A stretch of DNA of 30,230 bases, from IMG/VR virus record IMGVR_UViG_3300037742_000027, positions 1 through 30,230 of that record; one strand, written 5' to 3'. Under the pieces are notes generated by a model. The model ran no database searches, was not told the DNA's origin, and saw only the letters and a list, made by a program, of their open reading frames with translations. Shown here piece by piece: positions 4,011-28,347 of the stretch. Numbering within the stretch: position 1 is the first letter of the stretch; every line of letters starts with the position of its first letter. A program made the translations under genes and the position numbers. The stretch comes from a virus (lineage: Duplodnaviria; Caudoviricetes).

Positions 4011-4859
4011 CTACTGCACCCCCGTCATGGCTTCGGCTTCTGCGATGCGCCTGGCGATCCATTCCGTGATTTGCGGGAGGACCGCATTACCGAGCGCGGC
4101 CAGTCGAGCATTGTCCAATCCTGGGGATACCCCATCAGCCACTCGACAAATTGCGGGCTCGGCTTCCCACCGAGCACGTTGTCGAGCATCAACCCGCCAC
4201 CTCTCAAAATCGAGCCCTTGCCGCGTCCACCGCCGCGCCCGTGTTGGTTCTGTCGGGCCTGTGGCGTCGGATACATCCGCACGTAATCCGTGAGCGTCGT
4301 GCCGGCGTGGATGCCCGTTGGTGGCGTCTTGAACCGTCGCGCCGTCGCATTCGCGGCCGACTTCGCATCGCCCTTCGTCGGCGTGGGGATAAGCGACGAT
4401 CCACAGACGGTCACGACCATGCGGGGCGCCAACGGCCGCAGCCTGAATACAATCCCATTCCGCGTCATACCCGCTCTCGGCCAAATCGCTGAGAACACGG
4501 CCCACCCCTCGAGCCAGCAAGTCTGCGACGTTCTCCACAACGACGTAACGGGGTCGAAGTTGGCGAATGATTCGAGCCATCTCGAACCAAAGACCGGACT
4601 GCTCTCCGTCAAGTCCGGCCTTGGCGCCGGCGCTGCTGATGTCTTGACAGGGGAATCCTCCGCAGACGACATCAACACGCTCGAGTGTTTCGGCTCCAAC
4701 GGTTCGGACATCCTCGTAGCGCCTCACGTCCGGCCAGTGCTTCTCGAGCACCGCCCGACAAAACGGATCGATTTCCACCTGCCACTTGATCTCAAAGCCC
4801 GCGCGTTCAAAGCCGAGATCGAACCCGCCGATGCCGGCGAACAAACTGCCGACCGTCAT
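4011..4859 (-). CDS. DNA (cytosine-5) methyltransferase, alpha-type polypeptide lacking motif IX
   Basis: Motif I SLFAGIGG, IV GGFPCQ, VI ENV, VIII HGRDRLW, X LGNAVLP. Confidence 0.95.
   Translation of the reverse strand: MTVGSLFAGIGGFDLGFERAGFEIKWQVEIDPFCRAVLEKHWPDVRRYEDVRTVGAETLERVDVVCGGFPCQDISSAGAKAGLDGEQSGLWFEMARIIRQLRPRYVVVENVADLLARGVGRVLSDLAESGYDAEWDCIQAAAVGAPHGRDRLWIVAYPHADEGRCEVGRECDGATVQDATNGHPRRHDAHGLRADVSDATGPTEPTRARRWTRQGLDFERWRVDARQRARWEAEPAICRVADGVSPGLDNARLAALGNAVLPQITEWIARRIAEAEAMTGVQ
4025..4711 (-). CDS. Overprinted beta-type subunit of the C5-methyltransferase (target-recognition region plus motif IX)
   Basis: 228-codon alternate-frame ORF fully inside the MTase gene. PTP repeats and PQFVEWLMGYPQDWT (motif IX-like). 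Precedent is M.EcoHK31I. Start at 4711 or 4672. Confidence 0.7.
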   Translation of the reverse strand: MSEPLEPKHSSVLMSSAEDSPVKTSAAPAPRPDLTESSPVFGSRWLESFANFDPVTSLWRTSQTCWLEGWAVFSAIWPRAGMTRNGIVFRLRPLAPRMVVTVCGSSLIPTPTKGDAKSAANATARRFKTPPTGIHAGTTLTDYVRMYPTPQARQNQHGRGGGRGKGSILRGGGLMLDNVLGGKPSPQFVEWLMGYPQDWTMLDWPRSVMRSSRKSRNGSPGASQKPKP

Positions 4860-5066
4860 CTACTGCACCCCTCGGGCCTGCCCGGTCTCATCGTGGAGAT
4901 AGTCCGCCGCCAGATACGCCAACGCGATCCGAAACACTTCCGCCCGGCTGGACGCCTCGAGCACCCGCTGCAACGCCTCCACATCCGCCAGCGCGGCCGG
5001 CGTCAAGGACGTGGTCACCGACTGACAGAATGTCCCGCGATAGTCGTCCGGGGTGCGCGCGTTCAT
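4860..5066 (-). CDS. Ribbon-helix-helix/CopG-like small DNA-binding protein (68 aa)
   Basis: SVTTSLTP..LADVEAL....SRAEVFRIAL pattern, ATGA overlap at 5063-5066. Confidence 0.6.
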   Translation of the reverse strand: MNARTPDDYRGTFCQSVTTSLTPAALADVEALQRVLEASSRAEVFRIALAYLAADYLHDETGQARGVQ

Positions 5067-5626
5067 GCGCTGGCCTCTTTCTCGAACACGCTGAACACGC
5101 GCATCCGGTTGTTGAATCCGGCGATCACCCCGACGCACGCGACAAACCGCACACCCACGCGCGGCGGTTGCGGTAACGCGTAGTGCAGCATCCCAACACG
5201 CCCACCCGGTCTGACGACTTCGATCATGGTGCGGAGAATCGCGTTCGCGCTCGGGAACGCCGCCGCGCCCGGCGCATACTGCGCGGCATCGGCCTCGGTG
5301 TAGGGCGGGTCGGCGATCACCGCCGGCCACGGCTCGGCGAGTCCGATCGGGTTGAACGTATTCCACGGCAGCGGCGCCGTGGCCGATTGCACGAAGTCCG
5401 GCTCCAGCGCGGGATCGAGATCGAGCGTGCGATCATTCGGCCCGAATCCGCGCGGCTTCGCGGGATACTGGCGCGCGGCCCCGCCGCAGACGTGCAGCAA
5501 CGCATCGAACGGCGTGATACCCAGCAGGGCGCGGGCGCGTTCCAGGAACCCATTCGGGTAGGCGCCGTAGTACTTCACCTTTGGCCGCGCGAGAATCCAC
5601 ACGTCGGTGATCGGGCGATAACTCAT
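5063..5626 (-). CDS. Small SAM-dependent amino-methyltransferase (N6-adenine/N4-cytosine type)
   Basis: LLHVCGG (motif I-like), DLDP..PD, catalytic VIADPPY. Confidence 0.75.
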   Translation of the reverse strand: MSYRPITDVWILARPKVKYYGAYPNGFLERARALLGITPFDALLHVCGGAARQYPAKPRGFGPNDRTLDLDPALEPDFVQSATAPLPWNTFNPIGLAEPWPAVIADPPYTEADAAQYAPGAAAFPSANAILRTMIEVVRPGGRVGMLHYALPQPPRVGVRFVACVGVIAGFNNRMRVFSVFEKEASA

Positions 5627-11773: not shown

Positions 11774-12709
11774 TTACAGCAGGCTCCCAACGGGTTCCTG
11801 CTGCTCTGGGGCGACAGGGGCGACGAAGACTTTCTTCGCCCGGTCGAAGGCAATCGTGAGCGCCTCGGCGCGGTCCATCAGGAGCTTGGCGGCTTGCGGC
11901 TGCAGCGTCGGCCCGAGGGCTTTCACGAGCGGAATCTGCTCGTTCAACTGCGCGGCCGTGGTGAGCGCGTCGATCTTCGCGCGCCACGTCTCGACCTGCG
12001 CCGTCACGCGGGCGCTCTCGTCGCTGATGTTGCCGAGCGCTTCACGGCCCTGGTCGAACAGGTCAGCCATGAACTGCTGCGCCTTGCCGACGGGCGGCAC
12101 CTTGAACGGTGCCCATCCACCGGGGTTCTTCCCGACCCAGCGATCGGTCGGGTTGAAATCGAGAATGCGATCCTTGCCGACCATATAGGCGTAGCCGACA
12201 AAGTCCGCGACCTTCATCACTTCGCCGTAGGAACCTCCGGCGATGTCGGGACGCACGATGCGGGTATCGCCGTCCTTGTCTTCCTTGTCGTGCGCGATCA
12301 GGAGGACGTCCTTGCCCATCGCGCGCAGCTGAGTCACCCACAGACGGAAGCGCGTTTTGAGCACGCCCCAGCCCTGAATCGACAAGCTGCCGCCGCGGCC
12401 GTCCTTCGGGTTCTTCGTGATGATGTCGGCGGTGATGAGATCAAGGCAGCGGCCGACCGTGTCGACGACCACGGTGCTATACGGCTCCAGCACAGCCGGC
12501 TGATTCATCAACTCTTCGACATCGGCCCACGTCGCGATTTGCAGCGTGTCGCCGCGGTTGGCGGCGCGGTGTGCGCCCTGGTCGAAGTCCAGCGCCAGCG
12601 GCGCCTTGGTCGAGTAGCCGAGCGTGCTCTTGCCGATACCGGGTTGCCCGAACAGGCAGAACACCGGATGCTCGACCGCGATCGTTTCCGTGCTCTTGAT
12701 GATTTTCAT
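11774..12709 (-). CDS. sak4: Sak4-like (AAA_24) single-strand annealing ATPase
   Basis: Walker A GQPGIGKST, LDFDQG, VVDT, WG, LIAH..E, D.VGY, GKN. Start at MKIIKS by TAATG coupling. Confidence 0.85.
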   Translation of the reverse strand: MKIIKSTETIAVEHPVFCLFGQPGIGKSTLGYSTKAPLALDFDQGAHRAANRGDTLQIATWADVEELMNQPAVLEPYSTVVVDTVGRCLDLITADIITKNPKDGRGGSLSIQGWGVLKTRFRLWVTQLRAMGKDVLLIAHDKEDKDGDTRIVRPDIAGGSYGEVMKVADFVGYAYMVGKDRILDFNPTDRWVGKNPGGWAPFKVPPVGKAQQFMADLFDQGREALGNISDESARVTAQVETWRAKIDALTTAAQLNEQIPLVKALGPTLQPQAAKLLMDRAEALTIAFDRAKKVFVAPVAPEQQEPVGSLL

Positions 12710-13218
12710 TACGCTCTCGCCTTTCCGCCGAAGTGGTCCGTCATCAGCTTCTGCAGGGGCTGGACGGCACTGTGGGCCCGTGCCTCGTTCAACGCGAGGA
12801 TTTCCGCCTTGTCGTCCTTCGCGAGCTGCTTGTAGACATCCACGGCCCTCGGCCACTCCCCGCGCACGAAGGCCAGGAACCGGCGCACGATCAGTTGTGC
12901 ATCACGGACCAACTTGATCCGCTGCTTCAGCGGCAACGTGGACAGCACGCTCTCGCCGTACTCGCTTTGGAGCATCTCCGCGGCGAAGTAATCCGCCGCC
13001 TCGCGCAACTCGGGATCGGCGACCATCAGCACGGCCGCTTCCGCGATCTGCTGGTAGGTGCTGCGCACGGCATGGGGGATGTCGTCGAACTCGGCGCGCT
13101 TCGACAAGCGATCCGCGCGGTAGAGCGCGAGCGCGACATCGTTGGCGAGGTTGGCGCGCTGCATCATACGGGCCGCTTCCAAGTTCGTCGGGCTTTCGGT
13201 ATCATTGCGATCAATCAC
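12709..13218 (-). CDS. Hypothetical helical protein
   Basis: GTG start with AGGGAG SD, TAATG coupling downstream. Confidence 0.7.
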   Translation of the reverse strand: MIDRNDTESPTNLEAARMMQRANLANDVALALYRADRLSKRAEFDDIPHAVRSTYQQIAEAAVLMVADPELREAADYFAAEMLQSEYGESVLSTLPLKQRIKLVRDAQLIVRRFLAFVRGEWPRAVDVYKQLAKDDKAEILALNEARAHSAVQPLQKLMTDHFGGKARA

Positions 13219-13243
13219 TGGCGTGCTCCCTGGTTCGCTGGTG

Positions 13244-13288
13244 AAAGGCCCGCGCTGCTGCAATCAGTCGCGGGCCGTTTGTCTTTTT
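13244..13288. terminator. GC-rich hairpin, possibly a bidirectional terminator
   Basis: Stem GGCCCGCG (13247-13254)/CGCGGGCC (13269-13276), with AAA on the left and GTTTGTCTTTTT on the right. Confidence 0.55.
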
Positions 13289-14105
13289 ATTCGGCGGCGC
13301 TTTCTTTCCACCACGACGGCAGGCGCTTACCGCGCGGGCCGACGCCTTTGTTGTAAAGGTCCACTACGGCAGCCGCGACGCACTGTTTCTTCTGATTGCC
13401 AGTGCGCTCTCGGATCGATTCCGCCTTCCGCAACAGATCACGCGCACCTTGCCGCAGTCCGTTCAGCGAAGCGCCGAGTTCCTTTTCGTTGGTGCGGCCG
13501 TTGTAGCGGTTGTAGACCAGCCCGAGTCCCTCCACGATCGCGCGGTCGAACGCGAGCGGGTCACCACCGAAACCCAAGTTGATCGTCCGAATGACTTGGC
13601 CGAGCACCACGTCACCGCTCCGGTCATACACAGCGCCGAGTGCGCCAACCGCGCTGATACCTTCGTCGCGCGAGCGGCTGATCTTCTGTCCGTTGGTTTC
13701 AACGGCGCGACGAATGTCTTGTTCGCGCCGATGGCCGGCCGTGCAGGAGACGTGAAATTTGTCATAGAGCGGGACGGGCCGACGTGCATCGCGTCCAAGG
13801 AAGATGTCGGCCATTTCCGCATCAGTCAGATCCTCGTAGACTTCGCAATCGAGCACGTCTTTCTCAAAGCCGTTCTGCTTGAGTGCGTAGATACGATGCT
13901 GCCCATCGACCACCCAGTAATTGCCGTCACGGTGATTGATGATCGGATAGCCAAGCTTGTTCAGGTCGAGTTCCGACGCGATCCGATCGCCATGAGCCTT
14001 GCGAAACTCGCGCTGCGTGACGAGCGCTGGAGGAATGCGCATTTGGTGAATCGGAACCGCGCGAATCTTCGACGGCTTCCGATTACTGCTAGGCTGCTTC
14101 GCCAT
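13287..14105 (-). CDS. ParB/Srx-superfamily protein with DGQHR motif (DUF6551-like)
   Basis: QR....I......LG.PII..RDG.YWVVDGQHR..A......E..A..F. Confidence 0.8.
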   Translation of the reverse strand: MAKQPSSNRKPSKIRAVPIHQMRIPPALVTQREFRKAHGDRIASELDLNKLGYPIINHRDGNYWVVDGQHRIYALKQNGFEKDVLDCEVYEDLTDAEMADIFLGRDARRPVPLYDKFHVSCTAGHRREQDIRRAVETNGQKISRSRDEGISAVGALGAVYDRSGDVVLGQVIRTINLGFGGDPLAFDRAIVEGLGLVYNRYNGRTNEKELGASLNGLRQGARDLLRKAESIRERTGNQKKQCVAAAVVDLYNKGVGPRGKRLPSWWKESAAE

Positions 14106-15123
14106 TGGTTTGCTGCTCCTTCATAAGTCGACGGATGAACGCGCCGAGTTTGTCGCGCGATACCTGCAGCGACCGGACCCAAGTAGGCAACTGCGCGCGA
14201 TCGATGTCTGAGAAGTTGATCAGTTCGGCGCCGTCGGTCAGGTTCTCCGCGTCATTCACGATCTGTTCAAGGATGCGCGTGGAGTCATGGCGCTTGATCT
14301 TCCCGATGGCTTTATCTGCTGGCACTTCGACGCCGAGACGGAGCATGGTGGCGCGAACGTGTTTGTCAGACACACCAACGGCCGCCGCGATCTGACGCGA
14401 GGAATAGCCCTCGCTGGCCATCGTGCGCATCCGCTCCTGGCGCTCCTGAATGGCATCACGGGAACCATCAACCAACCCGACACCTAATTCCCGGCGCACG
14501 TCGGCGACCATCGAATTACTCACGCCGAGCGTCGCGCAAATGTCTTTCGACTGCTGCCCCGCGATCACGGCGTCGACAACGGCCTGATACTGCGGATGGC
14601 GCGCCGACGCGGTGTCGACATGGCGCGAGGCCGGATAGCTCTTGCCATCCTTGCCGGTGACGCGCGGGCGGGACTGTTCGGAATCGGGCAGGTTAACACT
14701 AGTGCTAACCTGCTCACGGAGCCGAGAAACGTATGTTTGAGCGCACCCAACCTGCGCCGCAAGCTGGTTACTGCTGCGCGCCGGAAATTCTTTCAGGGCC
14801 ATGAGAATTGCGTGCTTCTTGTCGCTCGCGGTGAGCCGTTGCCCGTTCGATTTATTTGCACCCAAAGCGAACCACAGGGCATCTGTTTTCGTCCCCGGCG
14901 TCACCGTGGCGTCAATGTCGCCGAGCCCGTTGCGCTTGGCAGCCAGTCCGCGATGGAAACCATCAGCCATGTAGTAGCGGTTGCCGTCATGGAACAGCAC
15001 CACGGGCGGGAACACGACGCCGCCATGCATCGCCTCTGCGTATTCGTGGACAACGTTCTCGCTCACCGACTCGCGGACTTGCGTCCCGGCGTCGAACACG
15101 ATGGCATCGAGAGGAATCCGCAT
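14089..15123 (-). CDS. ParB N-terminal domain protein with HTH motifs (344 aa)
   Basis: TQVR...V.EYAEAM..G..FPPVV....YYMADGFHR, N..NG.RL, SSNQLAAQVG and SSRQIAAAVGVS HTHs. Confidence 0.85.
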   Translation of the reverse strand: MRIPLDAIVFDAGTQVRESVSENVVHEYAEAMHGGVVFPPVVLFHDGNRYYMADGFHRGLAAKRNGLGDIDATVTPGTKTDALWFALGANKSNGQRLTASDKKHAILMALKEFPARSSNQLAAQVGCAQTYVSRLREQVSTSVNLPDSEQSRPRVTGKDGKSYPASRHVDTASARHPQYQAVVDAVIAGQQSKDICATLGVSNSMVADVRRELGVGLVDGSRDAIQERQERMRTMASEGYSSRQIAAAVGVSDKHVRATMLRLGVEVPADKAIGKIKRHDSTRILEQIVNDAENLTDGAELINFSDIDRAQLPTWVRSLQVSRDKLGAFIRRLMKEQQTNGEAA

Positions 15124-15257
15124 TACGGTCGGCTCCCTTTCATGAAGGCGCTGACGATCCACGCGCCCGTCACCATCAATCCGACGAACATCAATCCCAA
15201 CGCGATCACTTGCGCGATGTCGATCGCAAAGCGGATCAACGTGTACTCCTGGTTCAT
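15123..15257 (-). CDS. Small single-TM protein (44 aa)
   Basis: Hydrophobic IAQVIALGLMFVGLMVTGAWIVSAF, GGAGGA SD, coupled at both ends. Confidence 0.65.
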   Translation of the reverse strand: MNQEYTLIRFAIDIAQVIALGLMFVGLMVTGAWIVSAFMKGSRP

Positions 15258-16292: not shown

Positions 16293-16335
16293 GCCGAATT
16301 CGTGTGCTCGCGCAAATGTTTTGGAAGTGGTTTGA

Positions 16336-16348
16336 AATCAGCGACTTA
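16336..16348 (+). promoter_or_regulatory. IHF-consensus site
   Basis: AATCAG-CGAC-TTA matches WATCAR-N4-TTR, between the divergent promoters. Confidence 0.4.
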
Positions 16349-16350
16349 CG

Positions 16351-16381
16351 GTTTGCATAATGCAAACGTTTGCGCTACAAC
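16351..16381 (+). promoter_or_regulatory. Repressor promoter overlapped by a 17-bp palindromic operator
   Basis: TTGCAT (16353)-17 nt-TACAAC (16376). Perfect palindrome GTTTGCAT-A-ATGCAAAC (16351-16367), overlapping GCAAACGTTTGC (16362-16373). Confidence 0.6.
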
Positions 16382-16391
16382 ACGGTTCGCC

Positions 16392-16949
16392 ATGCGGCCA
16401 TCACTGAACATTGAGAACCGAATACGTCGCAATGCCGAGGCGTTGATGCGCGCCCCTGGCCGGAAGAAAGTGCGCGCGAACGTCGTCGCCAAGCGTATGG
16501 GGATGTCGCCGTCCGCATTCTCGAATTTTCTGGCGGGTCGGCAGTCCACTACATTTGCAAAGCTCGAAGCGCTCGCCGAAGGGCTCGGCGTGTCCCCTGC
16601 CGAACTCGTGAAGCGCGATGAGGAAACCATCTACGCGCTCAGCGGCGACGAGGCCGAACTGCTCCGGTACGTGCGACGGTGGACGGACGAGGCACGGCGG
16701 GCCGCCGTCGCGTTGCTGCGATACCTGCACGCGGCATTGCCCGATGACGACCAGACGATCCAGATGTTCCAGCACTGGAGCCGCCTGAAACAGTTCCAGC
16801 GCGCGCTCGTGCTCTCGACCGCCTTGCGTCAGCTCGACGAAGAACTTCCGCGTGAAGTACGAGTAACGCTTGGGATTCCGGAGTCAGACGAGGGAACACC
16901 CCGCACAAAGGGCAAGGGGCGAGGGCAGCAACGACGCGACGGCGAGTGA
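16392..16949 (+). CDS. CI-like XRE repressor without a recognisable S24 peptidase domain
   Basis: ANVVAKRMGMSPSAFSNFLAG.....FAKLEALAEGLGVSPAELV, helical C-terminus. Confidence 0.85.
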   Translation: MRPSLNIENRIRRNAEALMRAPGRKKVRANVVAKRMGMSPSAFSNFLAGRQSTTFAKLEALAEGLGVSPAELVKRDEETIYALSGDEAELLRYVRRWTDEARRAAVALLRYLHAALPDDDQTIQMFQHWSRLKQFQRALVLSTALRQLDEELPREVRVTLGIPESDEGTPRTKGKGRGQQRRDGE

Positions 16950-17133
16950 CCATGTTTCGACCTCACGGCGGCGAGTGAAAGAGCGAATGTTAGGCGAACC
17001 GGGTCCGGACTGCAATCATGCGGTTTGCACGAGATGCGCCAGACTCGGCCGTATCATGAATGGGCGGGAAGAACCGGCTAGCCACTCGGTCGCCACGCAA
17101 GCGCGTCTCGTTCCTGCACTGTCGGTAACGATC

Positions 17134-18111
17134 ATGAATATGAAGTCCTCGCGCGTCCTCCTCGTCGTCGGGTGGTTGTTCGCGCTCTCGCCGGCGGCCT
17201 TCGCGCAATCGCCACCCCTCCCGCCCGAACAGCTCACCGCCACGATCGACGGTGCCACGGTGACGCTGACGTGGTGGATCCCATTCGGCGGCGGTCCTCG
17301 CTATCGGCTCGAAGCGGGCAGCGCGCCGAATACGAGCAACGTGGTGAATACCATGCTCGCGTTTCGGCCCGACGAGCCCATTGGCGTGCGCTTCGAACGC
17401 GTGCCCGCCGGCACCTATTACGTGCGCGTCTACGCGAGGAACGACTTTGGCGAGAGTCGGCCGTCCAATGAGGTGACGGTCACGATCAGTCCGCGGGCCG
17501 CCTGCTTCGCCGCGCCGCCGTCACCGTTTCTGTCGGTGGCGATCTCCGGCCCGACGGCGACATTGACATGGATCGCGCTGGCTGGGTGCCCGGCCACCAC
17601 CTACAGTCTGTATGCGGGCTCGTCGCCGGGCGGCACGAATCTCGGGACCATCCGGGTCTTTGGCGAACATTACACGAGCGTGACGGTGCAGCCGCCCGTC
17701 AATGAACTGCTCTACGTCCACGTCCGCGCAGAGAATGCCTACGGGATCAGCGCCCCGTCGAATAGTGTCGCCGTGTTTACCACGCCCGCGCCACCAGCCC
17801 CGCCGCCGCCACCTCCACCACCGCCCGCACCATTGTGGACAGTGAGCGGCGAAAGCGATGACGTGGTCGCTGTCCCAGCCGGCGTCACGCTGGTCAGGAT
17901 TCAGGGGGAACTCATCGGTAGCACCACGTCCAACTTCATCGTGTCGAACGCTACGGACAATCTTGTGAATGTCGTGCTCAACAGCGAACAACGCGACTAC
18001 GCAGGGACGCATCCGGTGACGGCAGGAACGAGACTGGTGATCCGACAGTCGCCGTGGATTCGGTGGACGTTCACCGAAGTCCGCCAGACGACCGCTGAGG
18101 GATCACGCTGA
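17134..18111 (+). CDS. Secreted protein with two Fn3 domains, poly-Pro linker and C-terminal beta domain (moron-like)
   Basis: Signal peptide ending AFA-Q. Two VTLTW..Y.L.AGS.PG.SN...YVRV.A.N..G.S.PSN repeats. Confidence 0.85.
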   Translation: MNMKSSRVLLVVGWLFALSPAAFAQSPPLPPEQLTATIDGATVTLTWWIPFGGGPRYRLEAGSAPNTSNVVNTMLAFRPDEPIGVRFERVPAGTYYVRVYARNDFGESRPSNEVTVTISPRAACFAAPPSPFLSVAISGPTATLTWIALAGCPATTYSLYAGSSPGGTNLGTIRVFGEHYTSVTVQPPVNELLYVHVRAENAYGISAPSNSVAVFTTPAPPAPPPPPPPPPAPLWTVSGESDDVVAVPAGVTLVRIQGELIGSTTSNFIVSNATDNLVNVVLNSEQRDYAGTHPVTAGTRLVIRQSPWIRWTFTEVRQTTAEGSR

Positions 18112-21822: not shown

Positions 21823-22686
21823 TTACGCGCTGTTCAAGCCGATGTAGTAGTCCGTCCCGTCGACGTTGATGAGGAGTCGGCCACTCGCGACAGACACGTT
21901 GGTCGCATCGCGGCCGTCAATCCGGACCTTGCCGCTATCCACAAAGAGCGCGTAGTTATTCGCGGCGACCGCGGCGATCGTGGGCGCATCGCCGATGTAG
22001 ACCGTGGCGGCCACGCCCACGTTGCCGGCGCCGGTCATCGCGATGCCGCTACCGACAAAGCGCGCGCCATAGGCATTCAATGAGCCGAAGCCCGCCGTCG
22101 CGATCGTGTTGGACTGGCCGACATTGACAAAGGCGAGCACGTCACTGTTCACCGCCGCGGTCAGCACGCCGCGAATATCGAGCCCGAGTGCCAGCGTCCC
22201 CGAGGCGGTCGAGGTCAGCACCATCCGCAAGCCCGTCCCGGCTGCCCCGGCGCCTCCGATCCCGTGGCCGGTGGTCGCGTTGACCCGCACGCCGAGCGAG
22301 GTATCGATCTCGATCGCGTTGCTCGCGCCAGGCGTCGCGCCGATCCCGATGACGAACTTGTCGCTATCGGAGTTATCAACGCCGAGATTCCAGTTGAGCA
22401 CCCCGGCGATCCCGAAGACGGCATGAGGATCGCCCGCCGACGATCCGCCCACCGACATCGAGAGAATCGCATCGGACCCCGCTGTATTCGCGGCATTGGC
22501 GACCGAGAACGTGATGTCGCCCGACGAGGAGCGGCTGATCGTCAGGTCCGTCGTGAACAGCGCATCGATCGCATCGAGGATCACGGAGGCAATCGCGGCT
22601 TTGTTCCAGATGGAGCCGAGCGTATTCGTCCCGTCGTCATCGACGAGGGCGGCGTGAGCAGTGCGGCTGATCGTGGTGGCGGCCAT
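21823..22686 (-). CDS. Tail fibre/receptor-binding-like protein
   Basis: Gly/Ala/Ser/Thr-rich beta sequence, W..G.DNSDSDKF.IG module, C-terminal INVDGTDYYI hairpin. Follows the tail-tip gene. Confidence 0.7.
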   Translation of the reverse strand: MAATTISRTAHAALVDDDGTNTLGSIWNKAAIASVILDAIDALFTTDLTISRSSSGDITFSVANAANTAGSDAILSMSVGGSSAGDPHAVFGIAGVLNWNLGVDNSDSDKFVIGIGATPGASNAIEIDTSLGVRVNATTGHGIGGAGAAGTGLRMVLTSTASGTLALGLDIRGVLTAAVNSDVLAFVNVGQSNTIATAGFGSLNAYGARFVGSGIAMTGAGNVGVAATVYIGDAPTIAAVAANNYALFVDSGKVRIDGRDATNVSVASGRLLINVDGTDYYIGLNSA

Positions 22687-22689
22687 ACG

Positions 22690-25600
22690 TTACCTGACGG
22701 TCTGCACCATCCGGAGCAAGTCATCCAGCGTGAGCCGGGTGCGTCCTGCCGTGACAGTGGCTTTCGGGAAAATGGGAATACGCGCGCCGTTCACGGTCTC
22801 GTACGCCTCTTCAAAGCCGGTCCAGCTCACGTCTTGAATCGTCATCGACTCGCTGATGCTGAGCGGGGCGCCGATATTGATGGTGAGCGTGCGATTGCTG
22901 CCGAGATTGGGATCGCGCGTGACGTAGGTAAACGAATCTTCGCCGGCGTCGAAGTCGTCCAGCTCGCGATCGCCCGCGTGCTCACATTCCGCCACCGTCG
23001 CCAAGTCGCCGGCGTCGATGGTGTGCTCGTGAATCCCGTCGCCCCCTTCGAGCGTGGCCAGCGCCGTTTGCGCGGCGGTGTTCTCGCGCATCACGCGGAG
23101 GCGGATCGCGGTCCCGGCCTCCACCGCCGTGTCGAGCCCGCTGACACCCGTCAGATAGCCGCTGTTGACGACCGCCTCGTCCGTCGCGATGTCGACCAGA
23201 ATGGCGCCCACGCCGCTCGCGGGGATGCCGGTGATCGTGCCTTCCCCTGACGCCGCCGAGCGGGCGGTGTAGCGAATCGGCTGCCCCGAGACAATCGCCC
23301 ATCCGCCGTTCGCGTTGAACTTCGATAGGTCGCTCACGCGCAACGTCGTATCACCCGCCACCGGCCCCAGCTGTGACGCCGCTGGCGCCGGGTCGCCGAG
23401 ATCGGCATCCGCCTTGAAGTCGGTATAGGTCGTGGTCAACGCGTCGCCGATGGTGCCGGCGTATTTGTAGACGCTGCCACCCGCTTCGGTGCGATAGATC
23501 TTGCGCGCGACGGTGCCTGCAGGTCCGAGCGGAATACTGGACACGATGACCGCATCGCCCCCGAACGTGTTGGTCGGTGGCGACGTCGCGCCGAGTTGCG
23601 CATCCGGCGTTGTGTCGGTAAAGGTCGTGACGACGTTGTCGATCGACGCGACGTAACGAAACTCCGTGCCGCCGGCCACGGTGCGATAGATCGCGCGGCC
23701 CGTGACGCGCGGATCGCTGGAGACCTCGAGGCCGGTGAGCTTGATGGCTGCCCCGGCGTCCTGCGCTTCGGCCGGCGCCGAGTCCGTCAGGCTGGTATCG
23801 GGGATGTTGTCCGTCAGCGCCGTCGTCGTGTTGTCGTCGATCGTGCGGAGCAGGAAGTACTCGGTGCCACCCGCTTTCGTGCGATAGAGCCGACGGCGAC
23901 GGACGCGCGCATCCGAGGACACGGGAATGCTCGACAGCCCGATCTGCCCGCCAGTGCTATTGCGGGACGGCGCGCCGGCGCCCAGTGACGCATCCGGCAG
24001 CGTGTCCGTAAAGAACGTGTCGGTGTTGTTATTGAGCGTACCGAGGAGATAGAACTCGATGCCGCCCGCCCGTGTGCGCCAGAGGTTCCGCGCGATCACC
24101 CGCGAGTCGGTCGACGTCGGAATACTGCTCAGTGCGATTTGCCCGCCGGTCGTGTCACTCGTCGGCGCCAGCGTGGTCAAGTTCGCATCGGCAATGAGGT
24201 CGGTGTGCGTCGTCGCGGTGTTGTCGCCAATCGTGGCGACCAGTTGATAGATGTTCGTGACGCCGGTCGAGCGGTAGATTTTCCGGCCGACCACGCGCCC
24301 ATCAGCCGATGTCGGAATGCTCGACAGACTAACGGCGTTATTGGACCCGGTCAGCGAGATCTGCGCGGCACTCGCGGACAGCACTTCCCCGCCGGCCGTG
24401 TAGTACGCAATCTTGTAGTTGTAGGTCGTGAGGAGCGTGAGGTTGCCGCCCGTCGTCTCCGCGAGGGTCGCCGTGCCGGGCGCGGTGACGGCGCTGACCG
24501 CTTCCGAGTCGCCGCCCAACAAAAACGTTTCGCCCTCAGCGGTGACGAACGTCGCGCCGTACAGGTAGGTGCCCGGTGGCAAGCCGCCGTCCGTCGTGGT
24601 TGACGCGGTGGCCGTGGGCGTTCCCGCGTCGGCGACGGGGGTAATCGTGACGGTGCTGCTGGCCGTGCCGAGCGCGGTGAGGCCGCCGCTGGCCGTTTCG
24701 TACGCCGCCTTGTAGGTGCGCGCGCCCGGTTCCACGCCGACATCCATGCGATGTACCAGGATCGTCCCGGTGGCGGGGGTAGACGGGGCGCCGGAGACGG
24801 CATACGTGAAGCTGTCACCGTCGACGACGGTGGCGACCGTGACGATGCCGTTGTAGGCGGTTTCGGCGGCGCCGCTGACGCGCACGCGCATCCCCGGCAC
24901 CAGACCATGCGCGGCCATCGTGTTGAACGTGGCGACGTCGCTGCTGCGCGTGAGCGAGCTGGCCGTCACGGTGTTGCCGCTCGCCGTCGTCGTGAAGTCT
25001 GCGGTCAAGGCCCCCGGCGCCGCCACTTCCGTCGCGGTGACCGAGACTTCCGCTGATCGCAGTGTTTCCCCCCGTGCGGACTTGTGCGCCAGCGCATAGC
25101 GGTAGGCTCCCACTAGCGGGCCGCTCGTCATCGATTGCGCGGTGATCGTGCCGGTCGCCGGCGTGGCCGGCGCCCCGGAGACGCGATAGGTGAACGTCGT
25201 GGTCGACCCGACGGTCTGAATCGTAAAGACGCCATTGTAGGGCGTCTCGGCCGCGCCCGCGATCAGGACCTGCATCCCGGCTGCGTAGCCGTGCGCGGCG
25301 CTGGTTGTGACGGTCGCAGTGCCGTTACTGCGCGTGATGCTATCGATCGCGACCGTGGAGGCGCTGTGCGCTTCGGCCGCAGTGACGGCCGCGGGCGGGC
25401 TGAGCGTGGCGCCGGTGGCCGTCCCCGACGCCGTCCCCGCATCGGTCTCGAAATTGCGCGTGGAGCTCCCCGACGCACGGGCGACGATGGCGGTCGCCTT
25501 GTAGCTGACGATGCCGATCACCCCGCCGCCCGCGACTTTCTGCGCGGTGATCGTCGCGCCGGTCGCGGGCGTCGTGGGTGACCCGGCGACCGCGAAGGTA

Positions 25601-26688
25601 AAGGTGGTCGTGGTCGGCACGGTGGCAATCGCGAACGTGCCGTTGTAGTCGTTCTGATCGGCCCCGGCGATTTTGACGGGCAGGCCCGTCGAGAACCCAT
25701 GTGCCGCGCCGGTGGTGACGGTCACGGTCGATCCCGATCGCGTCATCGACGAGACGGCGACCGTCGAGGCCGAACGGCCCAGCGCGACACTCGGCGCCGT
25801 CAGCGCTTGCGGTGTGCCGGCGACGAGCGCCGCGGTATCATCCGTGCCGGCCGACGTGCCCGTGTAGGTGATGACATCCGGCCCAATGACGGCCGTGTCT
25901 CCCTCGACAAACCGCGCAATGTCCTCAACCGGCAGAATCGTGGCGCCCACACTCACCGGCACCGACACGCGCGAGCTTGCGCCCATCACGTAGATCCGCG
26001 TGCGGGCTTGCCGGAGTTGGCGCACATACGTCGCATCACGCGCGCCATGCACACCGGACTCCGTCACCGGGTGCGGCGCGACATCGGTGGAGACCACTTC
26101 CAGATGGACGCGCCGGGTGTAATCCACGAACCAGATCGCCCCGACCTGCTGGGCAATCGCATCGAGGACGTCGGTCACATCCGCGCCGGCAAAGACCAGA
26201 TCGCTGACGGTGCCGAGCCCGCCTTTGATTTTGGTCGTGTCGCTGCTGAAGCCGCTGGTGTAGGTGCTGAGCAGATCGAGCACCGCCTGCGCCGCATCGA
26301 CGCCGTCGATCGTCGTCCACACCTTGCGACGATTGAGGAGCCGCGTGTAATCGGTACAGGTCACGCGGTAGACGAGATTCGTGAGGATGCCTTCGTAGGT
26401 CTGCGCGACGGTTTCGATCTGGCCGCCAAAGACTACATTGGAGATCGAGCCGAGCCCAATCACGACCGCTTGCCCGCGGGTCGGCGTCCAGCCTGGATTG
26501 ATGCCGGTATCGAAACTCGCGGTATTCGGCGCGGCGCCGCGGACATCTCGAATGACGAGGGACGACTTGGTGATCGTGCTATGCCGCAACGTGCCGCCGA
26601 CGGTCATCTTCACGATGACGTCGAAGTGCCCCAACCGAAAGGCGTTCACGCGGCACACGTCCAAGCGGGCGCGGCCAAGGACCGGCAT
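22690..26688 (-). CDS. Tail-tip/baseplate hub (Tal-like) protein with a large inserted repeat array
   Basis: Follows the TMP. Hub-like N-terminus (FGGQI..V...Y...C.DY..LL, WFVD....H, TRIYVMG) and C-terminus. Three AHG...G..V.I.GA....YNG repeats and five IP...R.IYRT..GG..Y...I.DN.T...D repeats. Confidence 0.85.
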   Translation of the reverse strand: MPVLGRARLDVCRVNAFRLGHFDVIVKMTVGGTLRHSTITKSSLVIRDVRGAAPNTASFDTGINPGWTPTRGQAVVIGLGSISNVVFGGQIETVAQTYEGILTNLVYRVTCTDYTRLLNRRKVWTTIDGVDAAQAVLDLLSTYTSGFSSDTTKIKGGLGTVSDLVFAGADVTDVLDAIAQQVGAIWFVDYTRRVHLEVVSTDVAPHPVTESGVHGARDATYVRQLRQARTRIYVMGASSRVSVPVSVGATILPVEDIARFVEGDTAVIGPDVITYTGTSAGTDDTAALVAGTPQALTAPSVALGRSASTVAVSSMTRSGSTVTVTTGAAHGFSTGLPVKIAGADQNDYNGTFAIATVPTTTTFTFAVAGSPTTPATGATITAQKVAGGGVIGIVSYKATAIVARASGSSTRNFETDAGTASGTATGATLSPPAAVTAAEAHSASTVAIDSITRSNGTATVTTSAAHGYAAGMQVLIAGAAETPYNGVFTIQTVGSTTTFTYRVSGAPATPATGTITAQSMTSGPLVGAYRYALAHKSARGETLRSAEVSVTATEVAAPGALTADFTTTASGNTVTASSLTRSSDVATFNTMAAHGLVPGMRVRVSGAAETAYNGIVTVATVVDGDSFTYAVSGAPSTPATGTILVHRMDVGVEPGARTYKAAYETASGGLTALGTASSTVTITPVADAGTPTATASTTTDGGLPPGTYLYGATFVTAEGETFLLGGDSEAVSAVTAPGTATLAETTGGNLTLLTTYNYKIAYYTAGGEVLSASAAQISLTGSNNAVSLSSIPTSADGRVVGRKIYRSTGVTNIYQLVATIGDNTATTHTDLIADANLTTLAPTSDTTGGQIALSSIPTSTDSRVIARNLWRTRAGGIEFYLLGTLNNNTDTFFTDTLPDASLGAGAPSRNSTGGQIGLSSIPVSSDARVRRRRLYRTKAGGTEYFLLRTIDDNTTTALTDNIPDTSLTDSAPAEAQDAGAAIKLTGLEVSSDPRVTGRAIYRTVAGGTEFRYVASIDNVVTTFTDTTPDAQLGATSPPTNTFGGDAVIVSSIPLGPAGTVARKIYRTEAGGSVYKYAGTIGDALTTTYTDFKADADLGDPAPAASQLGPVAGDTTLRVSDLSKFNANGGWAIVSGQPIRYTARSAASGEGTITGIPASGVGAILVDIATDEAVVNSGYLTGVSGLDTAVEAGTAIRLRVMRENTAAQTALATLEGGDGIHEHTIDAGDLATVAECEHAGDRELDDFDAGEDSFTYVTRDPNLGSNRTLTINIGAPLSISESMTIQDVSWTGFEEAYETVNGARIPIFPKATVTAGRTRLTLDDLLRMVQTVR

Positions 26689-28347
26689 TTACCGCGCCCC
26701 CGGTCGCTTGGTGCCCAGTGTGGCGCGTTCCATCAGCAGTTCGTCGAGCATCCGGCGCAGATCTTCCTTGCCCGCGCCGATGGCCCCGTTGAGCGTGAGG
26801 TGATTCGTGATACTCGGGCCGACGCCGCCGCCCCCGGCTGGCGGCATGAAGCCCCCCCCGCTCCACGATTTGTGCTTCGGCATATTGGCGAGCACTTCGG
26901 AGGCGCCTTGCGTGGTCTGGTTGCCCTGCTGATCGATCCAGCCGTAGCCCCCGCCCTTCATCTGGGCGACGATGTTCGAGATCGACCCGTTGACGACGCC
27001 GAATTGCGCGGCGACCTGCTTGGCAGACTCCCCGATGGCGTCGGTGCCGCTCTTGACGGCGTTGAGGCCCTGTAGCATCTCCTGTACTTCGAGGTTGGCG
27101 CGTTCGTACTCCGCATGGATCGCGTTGCGGCCGCTCTCGATGTTTGGATCGATGCCCGCGACCGCCCGATCCGCGCGCGCGATGATCTCGTTGACGCGAT
27201 CGTTCAGGCTCGGCTCGGTCCCGCCGGGACTCTGCATCCGCTGGATGATGGCGGCGCTCTCAGCCTCCGAGCTTTGCCGGAGGATCGCCGCTTTGGCGAT
27301 GGCGTTATTCAGGCTCTGACCTTCTACCGTGAGCCCGATTCGCATTTCGGCGTTGATCTCCGTCACGCGATCCTTGACGGACTGCCACGCCTCGGCGAGC
27401 TGCATCGTCCACTTGTATTGATCGGCCGAGAGCTCCGTTAGCTCCCGTCCACGGCTCACCGCGCTCGCCATCGCCGCATCGAGCGCATCGGTGTCGGGTG
27501 TTGGCCGTGCCGCAAAGGGCTCCTCTGTATTCAGTTGGATGTTGCCCCCAAAGCTCCGGCCGCGCGTGCGCGCTTCTTCCCATTCGAGCAGGCGTTCCCC
27601 CTCGCTATTCACTTCTTTCAAGGCCAGCACGTACGCCTTCGCGCCGGAGGCATTCGCCAGGAGTTCAATCCCGAACGATTTCGCGCTTTGGATGGCGCGC
27701 GCGAATGTCACATCCAGGGCGTCCATCGCGTCGACACCCTCCTCGGTCACCGCCAGCCACGGTTGCGCGGATTCGGCGAGGTCCGTGCGGAAGGTCCCCG
27801 CCAACGCCTTGGCGCTCTTGCCGAGTAGCTCTTGAGCCACCAGCGCGCGGCCGCCGGCGGTCGGGATCTCACCGATGGCCGCCGCCACCTGGAGATACAA
27901 CTCCACCGGCCGCAGTCCGTGGAGTTCCGTGACGTTGAGATTCAGGCGCTTGAGTGCCGCATCTGCATCCCCGCTGGCGAGTTTGGCCTGCAGTGTCTGG
28001 ATGGCACCGATTAACGTCTCGAGCGTGACGGAGTAGTCGGCGCTAATCGCCTCCAGGCGCTGCGTGTTGGTGGCCGTATCGTCGACCATCGCCGCGAGCT
28101 TTTGGTACTCCGCACCGGCCTCGATGACGGCCGATGTCCACTGCCGCACCTTGTCGACCGCCCACGATCCGGCGAGAATCGACGCGCCACGCTGCGCCAT
28201 CGTATACAGGCCGGAGAGTTGGGTATTCGCCTGCCCGACGCCACGCTCGACGCCCTGCACGCTGGCGGTCACGGTCTGCATCCCCGTGACGAGTTCCGAC
28301 GTGTCGGCGAGGACGCGCACGATCAGTGCAGCAAGTGGAGCAGCCAT
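26689..28347 (-). CDS. Tail tape measure protein (552 aa)
   Basis: L.VRV.ADT N-terminus, Ala-rich helical body, Gly-rich tail plus ITNHLTLNG. Follows the chaperones. Confidence 0.88.
   Translation of the reverse strand: MAAPLAALIVRVLADTSELVTGMQTVTASVQGVERGVGQANTQLSGLYTMAQRGASILAGSWAVDKVRQWTSAVIEAGAEYQKLAAMVDDTATNTQRLEAISADYSVTLETLIGAIQTLQAKLASGDADAALKRLNLNVTELHGLRPVELYLQVAAAIGEIPTAGGRALVAQELLGKSAKALAGTFRTDLAESAQPWLAVTEEGVDAMDALDVTFARAIQSAKSFGIELLANASGAKAYVLALKEVNSEGERLLEWEEARTRGRSFGGNIQLNTEEPFAARPTPDTDALDAAMASAVSRGRELTELSADQYKWTMQLAEAWQSVKDRVTEINAEMRIGLTVEGQSLNNAIAKAAILRQSSEAESAAIIQRMQSPGGTEPSLNDRVNEIIARADRAVAGIDPNIESGRNAIHAEYERANLEVQEMLQGLNAVKSGTDAIGESAKQVAAQFGVVNGSISNIVAQMKGGGYGWIDQQGNQTTQGASEVLANMPKHKSWSGGGFMPPAGGGGVGPSITNHLTLNGAIGAGKEDLRRMLDELLMERATLGTKRPGAR

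Follow-up and report, generated by a model that had tools for sequence, protein, structure and literature searches.

The protein encoded at 22690-26688 on the reverse strand of the virus contig IMGVR_UViG_3300037742_000027 (30,230 bases; "the window" below means this whole stretch) is a tail hub protein (Tal/gp27-like) that almost certainly carries five copies of one domain nested inside one another by recursive insertion, the first front half pairing with the last back half and so on inwards (a-a' to e-e'). Several lines of evidence carry this finding: the order of the ten half-domains, their matched numbers among relatives, couplings between mirror-placed halves, mirror-placed gains and losses of layers, and a relative that has the hub without the array. 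A predicted structure adds the pairing of c, d and e. The five domains likely form an out-and-back, double-linked arm, probably one that extends from the tail tip towards the host surface, for reach or for binding.

Order and number of the half-domains

The open reading frame contains five front halves (N-halves, a to e) followed by five back halves (C-halves, e' to a'), and all ten lie where the original prediction had placed them. The N-halves start at about residues 292, 430, 555, 685 and 734 (window positions 25815, 25401, 25026, 24636 and 24489), and the C-halves at about residues 785, 850, 915, 981 and 1046 (24336, 24141, 23946, 23748 and 23553). Only e and e' are contiguous, and this order of halves rules out a simple tandem repeat, as had been claimed from the letters. 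The gene and the parts of its array are as follows.

22690..26688 (-): whole gene, an open reading frame of 1332 amino acids, tail hub (Tal/gp27-like) protein carrying the nested insert
25402..25815 (-): N-half a, residues 292-429, with side module 1 inside at 25534-25767
25027..25401 (-): N-half b, residues 430-554, 27 bits, with side module 2 inside at 25129-25359
24637..25026 (-): N-half c, residues 555-684, 9 bits, with side module 3 inside at 24745-24975
24490..24636 (-): N-half d, residues 685-733, 23 bits, pairs with d' in the model
24154..24489 (-): innermost contiguous domain e + e', the predicted tip, residues 734-845, model range 84-198
23959..24141 (-): C-half d', residues 850-910, 70 bits, model range 34-263
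23764..23946 (-): C-half c', residues 915-975, 71 bits, model range 1-318
23569..23748 (-): C-half b', residues 981-1040, 62 bits, putative b-b' pairing from couplings
23380..23553 (-): C-half a', residues 1046-1103, 78 bits, putative a-a' pairing from couplings

With a tight profile, the C-halves reach 57-78 bits in all five cases (reversed sequences: 2.0 at most), and four of the five N-halves reach 9-27 bits (decoys: 3.3 at most). The weakest is N-half a, which is divergent and has an extra stretch in its hairpin; missed by the tight profile, it scores 9 bits with a wider one and lines up with the first N-half in two close relatives, P0002 and P0013. The C-halves are 37-54% identical to one another, with a DNA period of about 195 bases.

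The original prediction expected the numbers of front and back halves to co-vary among homologues, and they do. A search with residues 680-1110 returned 161 proteins, 120 of which were listed, this protein included; 96 of the 120 have equal front and back numbers (shuffle mean 32, maximum 50; r 0.91), and every one of the 96 is balanced like brackets. A second search gave 2516 representatives at an E-value of 0.001 or less, from which 108 new proteins were added; 26 without flanks were set aside, and 54 of the 82 complete-looking proteins were balanced (shuffle mean 17, maximum 32). Across both sets (228 proteins), 179 are complete and hub-type, with equal counts in 140.

Pure nests among the hub-type proteins range from 2 to 8 layers deep. 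In eleven proteins the nest branches or a host unit encloses tandem units, as in N8C5NC4, N(NC)8C and N3C2N2C3. The branched nests are found in L010:6293-11209 and in P0011, P0058, P0106, P0120 and P0204, where a unit or sub-nest sits between two back halves, and P0156 apparently has two separate nests. Single-layer relatives also exist (P0122 and P0129-P0131, the back half of P0130 having been identified by eye), as does a relative with no layers at all (P0133), and P0060, P0090 and P0101 carry tandem contiguous units. Host and insert are therefore both found in uninterrupted form, the host in P0133 and the insert in these tandem proteins and in 8jov_A. Short proteins of other kinds carry the unit once or in tandem (L016:520-1446; P0136-P0144); one of them, P0139, carries PF05135 and PF24163, and the unit also matches phrog_8040 (head closure) and phrog_511. 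The nested unit seems to be a general virion decoration module.

Pairing of the halves and history of the layers

To see which half pairs with which, we took the 82 pure nests that have at least three layers, which supply 373 half pairs, and ran a mean-field coupling analysis under four pairing schemes. Nested pairing gave top inter-half z-scores of 8.1, 8.1, 6.4, 6.1 and 6.1, whereas the top values were 2.9 for parallel pairing, 4.2 for random pairing and 3.6 for a one-step shift. The nested couplings include antiparallel ladders (front 29/31 with back 17/19; front 46/48 with back 3/1) and also link the front hairpin to the linker after the last back strand. With the innermost pair left out, the value was 8.6 for nested pairing versus 3.4, and the middle layers alone gave 7.5. 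Nine fixed pairs, scored in 46 new proteins (best identity to the first set: median 46%, maximum 87%), gave z-scores of 2.2-8.6 when nested and -0.9 to 1.8 when parallel. We also ranked the 120 possible pairings of this protein with a model trained without P0001, P0002, P0003 and P0006. Nested pairing ranked 1/120 with 40 or all coupled pairs and 3/120 with 20; parallel pairing ranked 61-86 of 120, and 8, 24 and 99 in a parallel-trained control. For a-a' and b-b', the pairing is suggested by these couplings, that is, by sequence evidence.

The pairing of c, d and e is also predicted by an AlphaFold model of residues 650-1105 (the hairpin of c, then d, e and all five back halves), built from a 38-row alignment in which all but one of the 37 other rows kept the register at every assignable half. 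Before modelling, we set down the expectation that nesting leaves b' and a' unpaired. The model has a mean predicted local distance difference test score (pLDDT) of 92 and a predicted template modelling score of 0.67; the blocks over e', d' and c' reach pLDDT 90-98, and those over b', a' and the linkers 68-94, lower as predicted. Pairing was read from structural-alignment ranges rather than coordinates. The 50 structural matches listed, mostly to single domains of 70-100 residues, form three concentric ranges: 34 in about 84-198 (e-e'), 3 at 34-263 (d-d') and 13 at 1-318 (c-c'). Among these 50 there is no match that links c with e' or extends to b' or a'; a second list of structural matches agrees, bar one row at a root-mean-square deviation (rmsd) of 19. 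A single-sequence AlphaFold run on residues 292-1105 reached pLDDT 31 and was discarded. Structure prediction, proposed as a check on all five layers, thus predicts e-e', d-d' and c-c' as expected, and its reach is the inner three.

The history of the layers points the same way. Within proteins, the similarity among front halves mirrors that among back halves (rho 0.39 nested vs 0.09 parallel), favouring nesting in 49 of 67 proteins. We then compared 82 proteins with their closest relative one layer shorter, locating the extra front half and the extra back half separately. The extra layer fits only the nested rule in 38 of the 82, only the parallel rule in 4 and both in 8 (chance is about 19 per rule). 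The 46 nested-compatible gains comprise 24 at the tip, 6 at the outermost layer and 16 in middle layers, although some tip gains may be missed divergent domains. Since one contiguous insertion cannot add a middle layer, we infer an exchange of inner segments by two crossovers. Layers would then be gained by two routes: a whole domain may be dropped into the tip loop, or a longer inner segment may be swapped in, which takes one crossover in each set of halves, front and back. Products left unbalanced by such recombination would misfold and disappear. In nests of four and five layers conservation is lowest at the tip (falling from 47 to 35% in the five-layer nests), and the tip carries more than 80 extra residues in 40 of 129 nests.

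Not everything fits. In the second set 28 of 82 proteins are unbalanced, as are 39 of the 179 hub-type proteins; 35 of these 39 have unexplained room for a missed half, leaving 4 without such room under the gap rule. Of the 82 indel pairs, 32 fit neither rule, mirror similarity favours parallel pairing in 18 of 67 proteins, and nests of three layers have no conservation gradient (43, 44, 44%). The drop in pLDDT for the orphan halves b' and a' is modest (68-94), the model covers only layers c, d and e, and it is not independent of the coupling test because it uses the same covariation. Finally, the homologues are related to one another, and this was handled by sequence weighting only. All of these points weigh against nesting as we read it. 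Still, the outcomes that the original prediction had named against itself (independently folding halves, parallel pairing and unequal counts) did not clearly appear, and recursive insertion into the same loop came through every test we ran (counts, couplings, layer gains and model).

The hub, the repeated unit and the surrounding genes

The array had been described as inserted between two parts of the hub. This holds, but one level was overlooked: the array interrupts a small barrel (residues 236-282 and 1176-1198), which in turn lies within the hub. The outer parts of the protein are:

25984..26688 (-): hub N-terminal part, residues 1-235; PF05954 matches in relatives, family-profile match to 7aef_q
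25843..25983 (-): small barrel 1 (first part, residues 236-282), into which the entire array is inserted; uninterrupted in the array-free P0133
23164..23379 (-): small barrel 2, residues 1104-1175, a second insert in the same barrel-1 loop; absent in some relatives
23095..23163 (-): small barrel 1, second part, residues 1176-1198; continuous with the first part in P0133
22693..23094 (-): putative hub C-terminal part, residues 1199-1332; conserved across the family and present in P0133

We call the protein a hub because of PF05954 (Phage_GPD) matches in relatives, the match to 7aef_q and the position of the gene. The hub N-part of this protein itself has no Pfam match; 6 of 10 scanned relatives match PF05954 there (profile positions 22-194 of 305), one of them above the cut-off, and the family profile matches residues 9-144 of 7aef_q (E-value 0.0011). 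The C-part (1199-1332) has no Pfam or PDB match of its own. P0133 consists of the hub N-part, one whole small barrel and the hub C-part. Small barrel 1, presumably a barrel judging from its motif, weakly resembles residues 1109-1147 in its first part (E-value 0.0017). Barrel 2 is missing in P0015, P0127, P0128 and P0133, whose sequences pick up again with the second part of barrel 1.

The first three N-halves each hold an inserted AHG/YNG module, as predicted. The modules lie at residues 308-385, 444-520 and 572-648, each placed between first strand and hairpin of its N-half (a, b and c in turn), and share 47-62% identity. Their label as E1-FCCH-like found no Pfam support, as none of the three matches PF16190 at an E-value of 0.5 or less; a like module in P0027 reaches 0.0034 against E1-FCCH (PF16190), below the cut-off. 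One of the three, module 3, matches PF12195 (End_beta_barrel) at an E-value of 1.2e-5 and 25.7 bits, below the cut-off of 35, and a side-module search gave endosialidase entries at an E-value of 0.094. The nearest family would therefore appear to be the endosialidase barrel, at a sub-cut-off likeness.

The repeated unit (model range 84-198) resembles domains from solved phage structures. It aligns as a whole domain, in sequence order, with residues 162-291 of the crAss001 muzzle (PDB 7QOK; Z-score 9.0, rmsd 2.7, 106 aligned) and with the inserted domain of SPO1 gp6.1 (9VEL, 282-401; Z-score 9.7-10.1), 103-106 residues being aligned across the 9VEL and 7QOK matches; the next unrelated rows score 4.3 or less. 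By sequence, the family profile matches 8jov_A 104-224 with both halves contiguous (E-values 7.6e-6 and 1.3e-7) and 9vel_C (1.3e-4 to 2.6e-3), and gives no match to 7QOK. We take 8JOV to be the tail of podophage GP4. A predicted viral protein also matches the unit (rmsd 1.4 over 121 columns), a search of the Atlas led to unnamed clusters and, weakly, to crAss_MUZ (0.81), and Foldseek against the PDB found nothing at an E-value of 0.001 or less. The two halves are contiguous in all three solved structures (8jov_A, 7QOK, 9VEL), in line with the earlier statement that they normally form one domain. The Fn3 label, by contrast, reflects a distant likeness (Z-score 4.4 or less); the unit is instead a sandwich of the IG1 type found in the crAss001 muzzle (Z-score 9). 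Pfam fn3 (PF00041) matches neither this protein nor the 38 alignment members, one of which matches PF24801 at an E-value of 0.0033. The innermost copy (24154-24489 (-), model range 84-188) also matches a latrotoxin beta-sandwich domain with a Z-score of 7.0-9.1 (8.9-9.1 at its best, which puts it among the top fold matches of the unit) and 14-16% identity, a likeness of fold only.

The hub gene begins one base after a tape-measure-like gene (boundary 26688/26689) directly upstream:

26689..28347 (-): tape-measure-like gene, 552 amino acids, named from its position and its similarity to the upstream genes of L009 and L015

This gene had no family match in profile scans. A gene of 550-880 amino acids lies directly upstream of the hub gene in 7 of 8 mapped related loci, and a distal tail (Dit) gene between tape measure and hub is absent here and in 7 of the 8. 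Further upstream are tail tube genes (phrog_9522, phrog_4574) and a chaperone-like gene; downstream are genes for a GH108 endolysin, a repressor, ParB-like proteins and a Sak4-like annealing protein. From this gene content, the virus would be a temperate long-tailed phage. The gene that follows the hub (21823-22686 (-)) encodes a glycine/alanine-rich protein of 287 amino acids without a Pfam or PHROG match, a candidate fibre or spike, and a gene of 284-340 amino acids holds the same position in L001, L004, L010, L015 and L017. On the opposite strand, beside a repressor-like gene (16302-16949), the gene at 16870-18111 (+) has a signal-peptide-like stretch, a proline run and Fn3 similarity (PF00041, E-value 2e-4; phrog_31), and is possibly a surface protein made in the lysogen. 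The Sak4-like protein and two adjoining ParB-like genes occupy 11774-15162 (-); a part for the Sak4-like protein in layer exchange would be speculative. A pair of DNA methyltransferase genes is found at 4011-5626. The record is linear and 16% complete by CheckV, with tail, lysis, regulation and replication genes present and head genes missing within the window.

One relative of the array, P0022, is labelled Vicinamibacterales, and a scan of species genomes with it gave no host lead. Scans with this 1332-residue protein found no related viral loci. No isolated phage matching the array was found; among isolated phages, P0041 as a query matched three records only, all in the hub part.

The proposed arm and comparison with known systems

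How might a domain come to be nested in itself five times? The unit would be a 115-residue beta-sandwich that acts as a portable insertion module. Both of its ends would lie at one pole, since the linker of 12-15 residues after the last strand packs along the front-half hairpin, and the loop between its halves, at the other pole, would accept inserts, its own copy included; the unit could therefore stack into itself. The full nest would run from the hub through barrel 1 to a, b, c, d and e, with barrel 2 beside the stack and one endosialidase-barrel-like module branching off each of a, b and c. Such an arm would have two chain crossings per joint and measure roughly 15-20 nm for five layers (estimated from the typical size of an immunoglobulin-like domain), and there would be three arms per hub if the hub is a trimer, as knowledge of the family suggests. 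Arm geometry, stiffness, the trimer, a receptor role and the recombination route are all things we infer. Host binding or reach is our preferred function for the arm by a modest degree, because of the variable tip, the extra residues there and the side modules.

The most serious alternative accepts the nest and gives the arm a structural task: it would brace the tail tip, dock the product of gene 21823-22686 or relay an opening signal, and bind no host. In crAss001, IG2 is described as a platform for a distal domain, and opening is said to require rearrangement of the IG domains (available part of PMC10172136). The same domain decorates capsid and connector proteins, and no carbohydrate-binding family matches the unit. 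However, an array-free relative (P0133) exists, and a depth that ranges from 0 to 8 with the tip most variable fits host-facing parts better than a fixed scaffold; we consider a purely structural arm unlikely, at about one chance in four.

Domain swapping is considerably less probable. Here the halves would pair between subunits of the hub trimer, keeping the mirror register and forming one braided central stalk. Couplings are blind to the difference between pairs within and between chains, and the nested HABAS domains of the cyanobacterial RNA polymerase Si3 are partly swapped (accessible text of PMC11515920). Nevertheless, a single chain models confidently with all three complete domains, and branched arrangements (N8C5NC4 and N3C2N2C3, for instance) are most simply explained by pairing inside one chain. 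Parallel pairing (a with e') or two independent repeat arrays can practically be dismissed: orphan C-halves do keep moderate model confidence and 4 of 82 indel pairs agree with the parallel rule alone, but parallel pairing yields no coupling ladder, ranks poorly under nested training and erratically under its own, and has no structural match spanning N3-C1 among those listed, and independent arrays would not keep equal counts.

A broader and more tentative reading, to which we give slightly less than even chances, is that a widespread hub family of uncultured phages uses a self-stacking domain as a building grammar. Paired recombination would make linear, branched or tandem-in-host arms of 0 to 9 units that always obey the bracket rules, giving a receptor arm adjustable in both length and shape. 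Were this true, the family would be a natural series for how halves up to 750 residues apart meet during folding. Repeat proteins usually grow by tandem duplication. Nesting is a minority pattern in a 2026 survey, whose showcase is a six-level case from RNA polymerase (PMC13114784, as far as its available part goes). The tail hub would reach the same depth as Si3 and comes with about 180 natural variants, with 0 to 8 layers and branched forms. Folding from the tip inwards, the joint gain of two separate half-repeats, and the stiffness of double-linked stacks versus tandem arrays are now testable. For annotation, the bracket pattern supplies a rule that suits such nested proteins, since profile searches break them up into pieces without meaning. 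The arm is also a natural scaffold on which domains could be displayed at a chosen distance while both termini stay anchored.

Compared with Tal/gp27-like hubs (PF05954), the likeness lies in the place after the tape measure gene and in the N-part matches of relatives. Lambda gpJ and T5 pb3 have accessory domains added at the C-terminus, whereas here they are nested inside the hub, and, unlike in siphophage hubs, the tape measure and hub genes adjoin without a separate distal tail gene. Fn3 domains share the two-sheet sandwich, with 61-70 residues aligning sequentially (partial only, Z-score 2.8-4.4), but their strand order appears to differ. The motifs of the unit presumably resemble Fn3 strands in the order F-G and then B-C-C'-E, and the unit may be a circular permutation relative to Fn3. 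The closest matches are IG1 of the crAss001 muzzle, the SPO1 gp6.1 insert and 8JOV chain A, which are the same unit and likewise inserted; in all three it is one contiguous copy, while here it is split and self-nested five deep. The available part of PMC10172136 describes IG1 (residues 163-292) as an inserted immunoglobulin-like domain with a different strand order.

A literature search (subscription papers and supplements being outside its scope) found no report of self-nesting of this domain or of a nested tail hub, and the available parts of the HFTV1 preprint, PMC4684702 and PMC13243795 describe no such nest. Self-nesting itself has been published for cyanobacterial Si3 (RpoC2, beta'), where, according to the accessible parts of PMC13114784 and PMC11515920, HABAS domains lie inside HABAS domains to six levels; what would be new is a nested IG1-type unit in a tail hub. 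As in Si3, one domain family appears to be recursively self-inserted, with six levels also likely here (barrel 1 and five layers): the homologous domains are split in two with their halves in mirror order, and the couplings, pairing rank and model ranges (c, d, e) predict concentric pairing. The host protein differs and the fold probably does too, the host here being a tail protein and the best fold matches IG1-type sandwiches. Our array also keeps to one loop, building a simple linear stack that shows no evident strand swapping, and its relatives vary in depth from 0 to 8 and include branched forms.

Out-and-back nests with both ends anchored and distal domains inserted in proximal ones are also found in the T4 tail sheath protein gp18 and in flagellin (D0-D3). 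Their layers, however, are mostly unlike domains, whereas those of the nested hub are copies of one.

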